Sequence record: PZ513996.1
From: a phage
Length of the DNA: 40,893 nt
Reading direction: 5' to 3' (one strand)
The translations under genes and the position numbers were made by a program. This document shows positions 1,828-3,213 of the stretch, in pieces. A model generated the notes under the pieces. The model was not told the origin of the DNA. It saw only the letters and a list, made by a program, of their open reading frames with translations, and did not search any database. How positions within the stretch are numbered: position 1 is the stretch's first letter; the number at the start of each line of letters is the position of its first letter.

Positions 1828-3213
1828 ATGGCTCAGTTCCTGAATCAAGATGCTAGTCCCGGTATAAAGGATTCTGCTAAACAAGATACTCTCATTGAAG
1901 TGCAACAACCTCAGGCTACAGTTAATTGGGGTGATGCAACAGACTTAGGTGCTTCCGCTCTTGAGCGTGCATCTAATACTGCCCAGGCTCGTACTGCTGC
2001 TATCACTGCAGGTCAGTCCTTTATAGCTGGTGCAGGTAACAGTATTATCGCAGCAGGTCTACGCAAAGCTTTCTCTCCAGACTTCCCAACTGACCTGGAC
2101 TTCAACTCTACGGAGATGCTTCAGAAAGATGCACGGACTAGAATTTACACCCCTAATCAGGAAGAAATTGATTACTTACGCACTTCGGTTAGTTTGGATG
2201 ATTATAACTACCGCATTGAACAGATGCTGGAGCAGCGCGAGCGTGATACTACTGCTAGCGCTAACATCGTGTCTGGTATCGCTGGTTCTATTCTAGGTGA
2301 CGCCCCTACCCTGTTAGCTCCGTTTGCAGCCGCAGGTGTAGCAGGTCGCGCAGGCTTAGCAGTTCGTTCAGCTATCCGTGCAGCAGACGTAGGTTCAGCG
2401 TACTATGCGCAGGACCAGCTGGGACAGTCCGAAGGTATCACTGCATTAGTAGCTGCAGTATCAGGCGTAGACCAGTTATTCGATATCCGCAAAGCAGTTA
2501 ATGCAAGCCGTGCTGTTCAGCGTACTGTTGCAGGTGCAACGGAAGATGCAGCAGATACCGCAGCTAATAACGCTGTAGATGCAAGTACTGGTACTACTCG
2601 TGGCAGTACTCGTACAGAAATGCAGTTCGATGAAGCTGCTCCTACTAAGCGTACAGCTCCAGACTCGGATGCCTTTACTACTAAGATTGATTCCTTAGAA
2701 TCTACCCCGCTTAAGAAACCTATTCGTATCCTGAAAGGTCAGCAGGCTCGTGTAAGTGTACGCGCAAGTGACGTTACTAAGAACCTGTTAGCACGCGATG
2801 TACTGGATGAGGGTCAGAAGGCATTGCTGCGTTCACTGGACGGTATCATAGATGATGTGCCTGTACACCTCGTAGGTGACACTAACATCTCTAGCCGTTA
2901 TAACCTAGCTAACAATGCGGTCACCCTGCGTGCCTCTAAGAAAGGCCCCCGTACTTGGAAGACCTACGGAGATGCTATCAATGGTCTGGATTCTAATACT
3001 GCTAAAATTGCTGTGCATGAGCTTATACATGCTGCTACTGTACGCGCTATTCAGTCTGGTACTCCAGAAGCATTGGAAGCTACCACTAACCTTACTCGTA
3101 TTCGTGAGCAGCTTCTTACTAGTCCTAATCTTGATGCGCGTATGCGCTACAGCCTGAGCAGTAACGAAGAGTTACTTGCAGGTCTTGCAGATGATAAAGG
3201 TCTGGTTAAGTAA
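1828..3213 (+). CDS. large internal virion protein (T7 gp16-like), N-terminal segment; last 41 codons identical to start of 38380..40893
   Basis: 461 aa; Ala/Gly-rich; its 3' 123 nt (3088..3210) repeat exactly at 38383..38505; the terminal TAA is absent from the second copy, which reads on; position next to other internal virion proteins. Confidence 0.5.
   Translation: MAQFLNQDASPGIKDSAKQDTLIEVQQPQATVNWGDATDLGASALERASNTAQARTAAITAGQSFIAGAGNSIIAAGLRKAFSPDFPTDLDFNSTEMLQKDARTRIYTPNQEEIDYLRTSVSLDDYNYRIEQMLEQRERDTTASANIVSGIAGSILGDAPTLLAPFAAAGVAGRAGLAVRSAIRAADVGSAYYAQDQLGQSEGITALVAAVSGVDQLFDIRKAVNASRAVQRTVAGATEDAADTAANNAVDASTGTTRGSTRTEMQFDEAAPTKRTAPDSDAFTTKIDSLESTPLKKPIRILKGQQARVSVRASDVTKNLLARDVLDEGQKALLRSLDGIIDDVPVHLVGDTNISSRYNLANNAVTLRASKKGPRTWKTYGDAINGLDSNTAKIAVHELIHAATVRAIQSGTPEALEATTNLTRIREQLLTSPNLDARMRYSLSSNEELLAGLADDKGLVK
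3088..3210 (+). repeat. 123-nt exact direct repeat, copy 1 (partner 38383..38505)
   Basis: read directly: aaccttactcgtattcgtgagcagcttcttactagtcc...ggtctggttaag identical at both loci. Confidence 0.9.

Follow-up and report, generated by a model that had tools for sequence, protein, structure and literature searches.

A gp16-type gene that appears in two pieces, both carrying the same 123 nt, raises the question whether the phage really has a split gene for its large internal virion protein or whether the split arose when the sequence was put together. The pieces are found in a stretch of phage DNA of 40,893 nt (the window). The original prediction described a large internal virion protein split in two. 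With the two window ends joined into a circle, it placed a tailspike gene and 264 nt between the halves. It suggested either that a circular contig with overlapping ends had been opened within the gene or that a chimeric join had occurred at a repeat. Our analysis indicates that the split gene and its repeat are almost certainly two technical artefacts, one stacked on the other, with no real feature behind them.

The description of the repeat itself was accurate. An exact direct repeat of 123 nt is present at 3088-3210 and 38383-38505 (100% identity), and it is the sole long exact repeat within the window. An exact repeat of this length cannot be due to chance. The flanking codons also read as claimed: TAA comes after copy 1 and CTG CTG CGT after copy 2, and the ATG directly before copy 2 stands in the place where copy 1 has ACT (3085-3087). 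Joined through one repeat copy, the two gp16 ORFs give an ORF of 3771 nt, which encodes exactly 1256 aa where about 1256 aa had been predicted. The product of 1828..3210 is the N-terminal part of this joined protein, and residues 455-470 of the joined protein read …DDKGLVKLLRNTEVEG…

The elements that bear on the question are listed here with their positions in PQ847473.1 (the record), the GenBank entry of Escherichia phage vB_EcoP_P64441 (42,960 bp, declared circular, Autoscriptoviridae/Slopekvirinae).

1..264, plus strand: two tiny ORFs of 38 and 48 aa, reverse complements of record 31678..31562 and 31885..31739
265..1827, plus strand: 520-aa beta-helix tail fiber/tailspike, reverse complement of record 33648..32086, annotated there as 'tail fiber protein' beside the endolysin
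1828..3210, plus strand: codons 1-461 of the gp16-type gene, reverse complement of PQ847473.1 1385..3 (100% identity), running off the low-coordinate contig end
3088..3210, plus strand: repeat copy 1, inside a 125-nt stretch (3086-3210) equal to record 127..3 and 42960..42836
3211..3213, plus strand: non-native TAA on the truncated N-terminal ORF; 1828-3210 is a substring of the record, 1828-3213 is not
3214..3339, plus strand: 41-aa ORF with TTG start from the gp15-gp16 intergenic region, reverse complement of record 1495..1370, overlapping the gp16 start at 1385
35131..38379, plus strand: 1082-aa endosialidase tailspike, reverse complement of record 40445..37197
38380..38382, plus strand: non-native ATG (native ACT) before the truncated C-terminal ORF; 38383-40893 is a substring of the record, 38380-40893 is not
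38383..38505, plus strand: repeat copy 2, inside a 125-nt stretch (38383-38507) that also equals record 125..1
38383..40893, plus strand: codons 421-1256 and the stop codon of the gp16-type gene, reverse complement of PQ847473.1 42958..40448 (100% identity), running off the high-coordinate contig end

The window as a chain of reading frames

Frame 1 of the window holds 59 stops, and the other five frames hold 506-1566. Each segment between two stops of frame 1 opens with ATG, GTG or TTG right after the preceding stop. It can be read directly from the window that it consists of 59 start-to-stop ORFs, butted head to tail in frame 1 with 0 spacer nucleotides. If the frames of the genes were independent, the probability of finding all 59 in one frame would be about (1/3)^58. 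Exact substrings of PQ847473.1 were found for 57 of the 59 ORFs, 56 on its minus strand and 1 on its plus strand. The sole two that do not match exactly are the gp16 pieces, which touch record positions 3 and 42958. The ORFs follow the rising coordinates of the record, and every one of them is written in sense orientation, so that the gene order is opposite to the native one. In the window the order is gp15-like, gp14-like, tail tube B, tail tube A, capsid, scaffold and portal; in the closest relative, Escherichia phage vB_EcoP_PAS7 (OQ921331.1), it is portal ... gp15-like, gp16.

The length of the window is accounted for to the nucleotide: 42960 nt of the record, minus 2261 nt of intergenic DNA that is absent, plus 188 nt of native gene overlaps that are written twice, plus 6 patch nucleotides, give 40893. 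Of 55 ORFs, 39 have an SD-like motif upstream in the record and only 9 in the window. Judged by mixed reading frames, spacers or overlaps between genes and ribosome-binding sites, the window is not native contiguous DNA. None of its 58 junctions is native; one of the artificial junctions reads ...CGTATTGTCTAA followed directly by ATGGCTCAGTTC... Exact scans of IMG/VR gave no match for two artificial junctions, nor for the native read-through that was used as a control, so that these scans carry no information on the junctions. A scan of metagenome contigs for the single-copy read-through gave no match as well.

The ascending order is broken at one place. The block of record 31562-33648 (window 1-1827), which comprises the two tiny ORFs and the 520-aa tail fiber gene, was moved to the front. 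Simple ordering rules, among them sorting on frame and sorting as text, were considered for this placement, and none fits. The tiny ORFs of 1..264 come from the non-coding region at the end of the genome, and 60 native nucleotides between them were left out.

Since the window is a concatenate of ORFs in reversed order, findings from it that rest on adjacency, intergenic sequence, frame relations or repeats at ORF boundaries are unreliable. This includes two shorter repeats. The 54-nt repeat at 22554-22607 and 24844-24897 is a native gene overlap of 44 nt written twice, and the 31-nt repeat at 17863-17893 and 18960-18990 is a native overlap of 25 nt written twice; both are lengthened by chance matches. 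Likewise, ATGGCTCAGTTCCTGA at 3324-3339 is a second copy of the opening 16 nt of gp16 (1828-1843), because the ORF at 3214-3339 natively overlaps the gp16 start.

Several other loci differ between the window and the annotation of the record. The holin ORF that GenBank places at record 34190..34438 is missing from the window, where its site is taken by a 48-aa ORF read in another frame (32308-32454). The record CDS 7756..7950 is missing from the window, and the large terminase subunit starts 19 codons later than annotated. The sole ORF taken from the plus strand of the record (22441-22563; 40 aa, GTG start) is antisense to all others and, lying in an intergenic region, was probably called spuriously. 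The window also contains two paralogous pentapeptide-repeat proteins, encoded at 21670-22251 (193 aa) and 28015-28551 (178 aa), with a periodicity of 15 nt. The repeat regions of the two genes are about 80-89% identical in DNA. A role of this pair in DNA mimicry or in anti-defence is a speculative possibility.

The terminal repeat of the source record

PQ847473.1 begins and ends within the gp16-type gene. Its first 127 nt (1-127) are directly seen to be identical to its last 127 nt (42834-42960), an exact terminal direct repeat. The 123 nt shared within the window equal 127-2-2, as the ORFs at the edges, cut to whole codons, lose 2 nt at each contig end. When the record is read literally as a circle, the two copies form a tandem duplication of 127 nt, which frameshifts the gp16 gene to '...GLVKL*'. 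When one copy is deleted and the sequence is circularised, the joined 3771-nt ORF is directly restored as contiguous DNA. The original suggestion of a circular contig that was cut inside the gene and kept a terminal overlap is therefore correct: the 127-nt terminal repeat lies in gp16, and removal of one copy leaves an ORF collinear with relatives. The deposited circle reads CTC TAA where the native gene continues CTG CTG CGT. As a consequence of this frameshift, GenBank shows two CDSs at the origin, join(42957..42960,1..1385) and 40448..42904, both named 'peptidoglycan lytic exotransglycosylase'.

The largest k-mer of SPAdes is 127, and a terminal repeat of 127 nt is a known signature of a circular SPAdes contig assembled at the largest k. 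The overlap in the record would stem from SPAdes at k=127. The source is the P64441 genome (PQ847473.1) or an identical assembly, almost certainly a circular contig from a de Bruijn graph that was opened inside the gp16-type gene. Its k-mer overlap of 127 nt was almost certainly left untrimmed, so that the first and last 127 nt are identical. In a linear reading of such a contig, the minus-strand gp16 gene falls into two ORFs, a 5' one and a 3' one, which extend past opposite contig ends and both contain the overlap. The window itself was made from called ORFs that were turned to sense one by one and set end to end, with the three-ORF block containing the 520-aa tail fiber gene put first. The truncated ORFs would have been trimmed to whole codons, which leaves 123 nt in common, and completed with an artificial TAA and an artificial ATG. 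We infer that these two codons were added by the process that built the window. When the 461-aa and 837-aa pieces were looked up as exact proteins, no recorded gene was found, which fits patched fragments and is not decisive.

The real phage almost certainly possesses one gene of 3771 nt for an internal virion/DNA-ejection protein of 1256 aa, located between the gp15-like and the endosialidase genes. PQ847473.1 appears to hold 127 redundant nucleotides, and the circular length would be 42,833 bp. In its present annotation, one essential ejection-protein gene is represented by two CDSs, so that the value of the finding lies in a correction of the GenBank entry and in data hygiene.

A single gp16-type gene in relatives

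In PAS7, the gp16-type gene was directly found as one CDS of 3771 nt and 1256 aa, annotated as DNA ejectosome component Gp16, and the 123-nt segment is single-copy in this genome. The joined protein shows 95.4% amino acid identity to PAS7 gp16 (WMX18822.1), with 91% nucleotide identity and 0 gaps, and the C-terminal piece 38383..40893 is collinear with it in the alignment. Altogether the joined protein matches 708 phage records, and 322 of these cover at least 80% of the protein in one place. Among the matches listed, nearly all extend as one piece over residues 1-1256, and the lone exception is the source record itself with residues 421-1256. That relatives contain a single uninterrupted ORF of about 1256 aa, a check proposed with the original prediction, was thereby confirmed, and two separate proteins with the termini seen in the window were found in none of the relatives examined. 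The notion of a large internal virion protein split in two is not supported, as the protein is uninterrupted in PAS7 and in over 300 further phage records.

The gp16-like nature of the joined protein, as originally predicted, was also verified. It matches phrog_342 ('internal virion protein with endolysin domain') in one stretch over residues 20-1255 (E=3.5e-178), which corresponds to full length. Solved ejection proteins of 1239-1337 aa match it as well. PDB 8vb2_A (gp48) matches residues 56-1242 without interruption across the junction (residues 420-461), PDB 9sfn_G likewise matches in one stretch across residues 420-461, and the best stretch of PDB 23sg_S (gp10), residues 261-1256, also crosses the junction. 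A Pfam search with both gp16 halves revealed no family at E<=0.01, lytic transglycosylase included. This lack of a peptidoglycan-lytic domain bears on the product name in GenBank only and not on the family membership, which is based on homology. The gp15-like protein showed no Pfam domains. In both PQ847473.1 and PAS7, the native place of the gp16-type gene is between the gp15-like gene and a tail fiber gene. The underlying gene is an ordinary, already known gp16-type ejection protein gene.

These data also bear on the possibility that the 127-bp tandem duplication is real and frameshifts the gp16 gene of P64441, so that two polypeptides of about 462 and 818 aa are made. The literal circle of PQ847473.1 does contain the duplication, and the submitters annotated two CDSs. 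However, it sits exactly at the contig ends and measures exactly 127 nt, the signature of an untrimmed k-mer overlap. Moreover, PAS7, which is 95% identical, is single-copy with a gap-free ORF of 1256 aa, all listed relatives and solved homologs are single chains, and the annotated C-terminal CDS would need an internal ATG start. We therefore regard a genuine duplication as very improbable. There is equally little likelihood that the ejectosome of P64441 works from a 462-aa N-terminal piece together with an 818-aa C-terminal piece whose translation restarts at an internal ATG.

Tail genes, genome ends and comparison with known systems

The 520-aa protein shows a weak match to Pfam Beta_helix and matches phrog_17640 ('tail fiber'). 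In PQ847473.1 its gene (32086..33648, minus strand) is natively the last one, after the endolysin gene and before a non-coding region of about 550 nt and the early genes. The closest end of the gp16 gene is about 6.8 kb away. The native site of this tailspike, a question raised by the original prediction, is thus the last gene position after the endolysin gene, and in PAS7 this position is also held by a tailspike. A direct comparison of the 520-aa tail fiber with the terminal tailspike of PAS7 revealed no sequence similarity. Judged from their sequences, the two are positional equivalents only and not homologs.

For the 1082-aa endosialidase, Pfam endosialidase domains were found at 1e-197, together with the N-terminal domain of the T7 tail fibre. 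Its gene is natively located directly downstream of gp16, and it appears upstream of the C-terminal half in the window because the gene order of the window is reversed. The phage has two receptor-binding proteins, namely this K1-type endosialidase with a T7 adaptor and the 520-aa beta-helix protein, in which no adaptor domain was detected with Pfam.

It could be supposed that the tailspike cassette was moved into gp16 by recombination or by a chimeric join at the 123-nt repeat. Genes for receptor-binding proteins are exchanged between phages, and the adjacency in the circle-closed window is the only observation in favor of such a move. The tailspike and 264 nt do lie between the halves in the literal window string; in the genome they do not, as the junctions are artificial. 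No junction in the window is native, and the circular order (C-terminal half, 264 nt, tailspike, N-terminal half) is not the topology of an insertion within a gene. The adjacency is produced by the artificial order of the ORFs. In addition, the tail fiber gene follows the endolysin gene in the identical public genome, and PAS7 has a non-homologous tailspike in the equal position. Neither the stop codon closing the N-terminal half nor the start codon opening the C-terminal half is part of the genome. The proposed chimeric join at a repeat is unsupported. Taken together, a rearrangement of this kind is hardly credible.

Autographivirales phages have short direct terminal repeats, and the 127-nt repeat is located at the ends of the record. 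It might then be a true direct terminal repeat, with the physical genome ends inside gp16, yet this is no more credible than the rearrangement: an essential conserved ORF would be cut in every packaged genome, the last late and the first early gene are separated by a large non-coding region (record 31539-32085), and the PAS7 record is opened at the non-coding late/early region and not in gp16. Phage genome ends normally lie in non-coding DNA at the late/early boundary.

The untrimmed assembly overlap, preferred here as the origin of the repeat, has a described counterpart. The SPAdes assembly of phage U136B carried terminal repeats of 127 bp, which were removed before deposit (PMC8104045). The record of P64441 resembles this case (PMC8104045) in having an exact direct repeat of 127 nt at the extreme contig ends. 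It is declared circular, and removal of one copy gives a biologically sensible sequence, as expected of an untrimmed k-mer overlap. In contrast to U136B, the overlap of P64441 was left in the deposit and lies inside a coding gene, which leads to a broken gene in the annotation.

Split genes are also known within this clade. The DNA polymerase of P64441 is encoded by two CDSs (record 22764..23909 and 21620..22771) with an annotated overlap of 8 nt. In the window, the corresponding ORFs are found at 22564-23751 and 23752-24897 (about 381 and 383-395 aa), and their overlap amounts to 44 nt with the earlier start used there. The same two-CDS layout is present in PAS7, and the polymerase is apparently a conserved and genuine split, as far as can be judged from the two genomes. 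Like the polymerase, gp16 is annotated as two CDSs. However, the polymerase split is conserved in PAS7, whereas PAS7 lacks the gp16 split, which falls at the contig ends of the P64441 record. Once joined, the P64441 protein matches over its full length the gp16-type ejection proteins of phiKMV-like phages and Slopekvirinae (phrog_342, PAS7 WMX18822.1 and the 'tetrameric ejection protein gp48' of PDB 8vb2). It equals PAS7 WMX18822.1 in length and native position, with no difference of substance.
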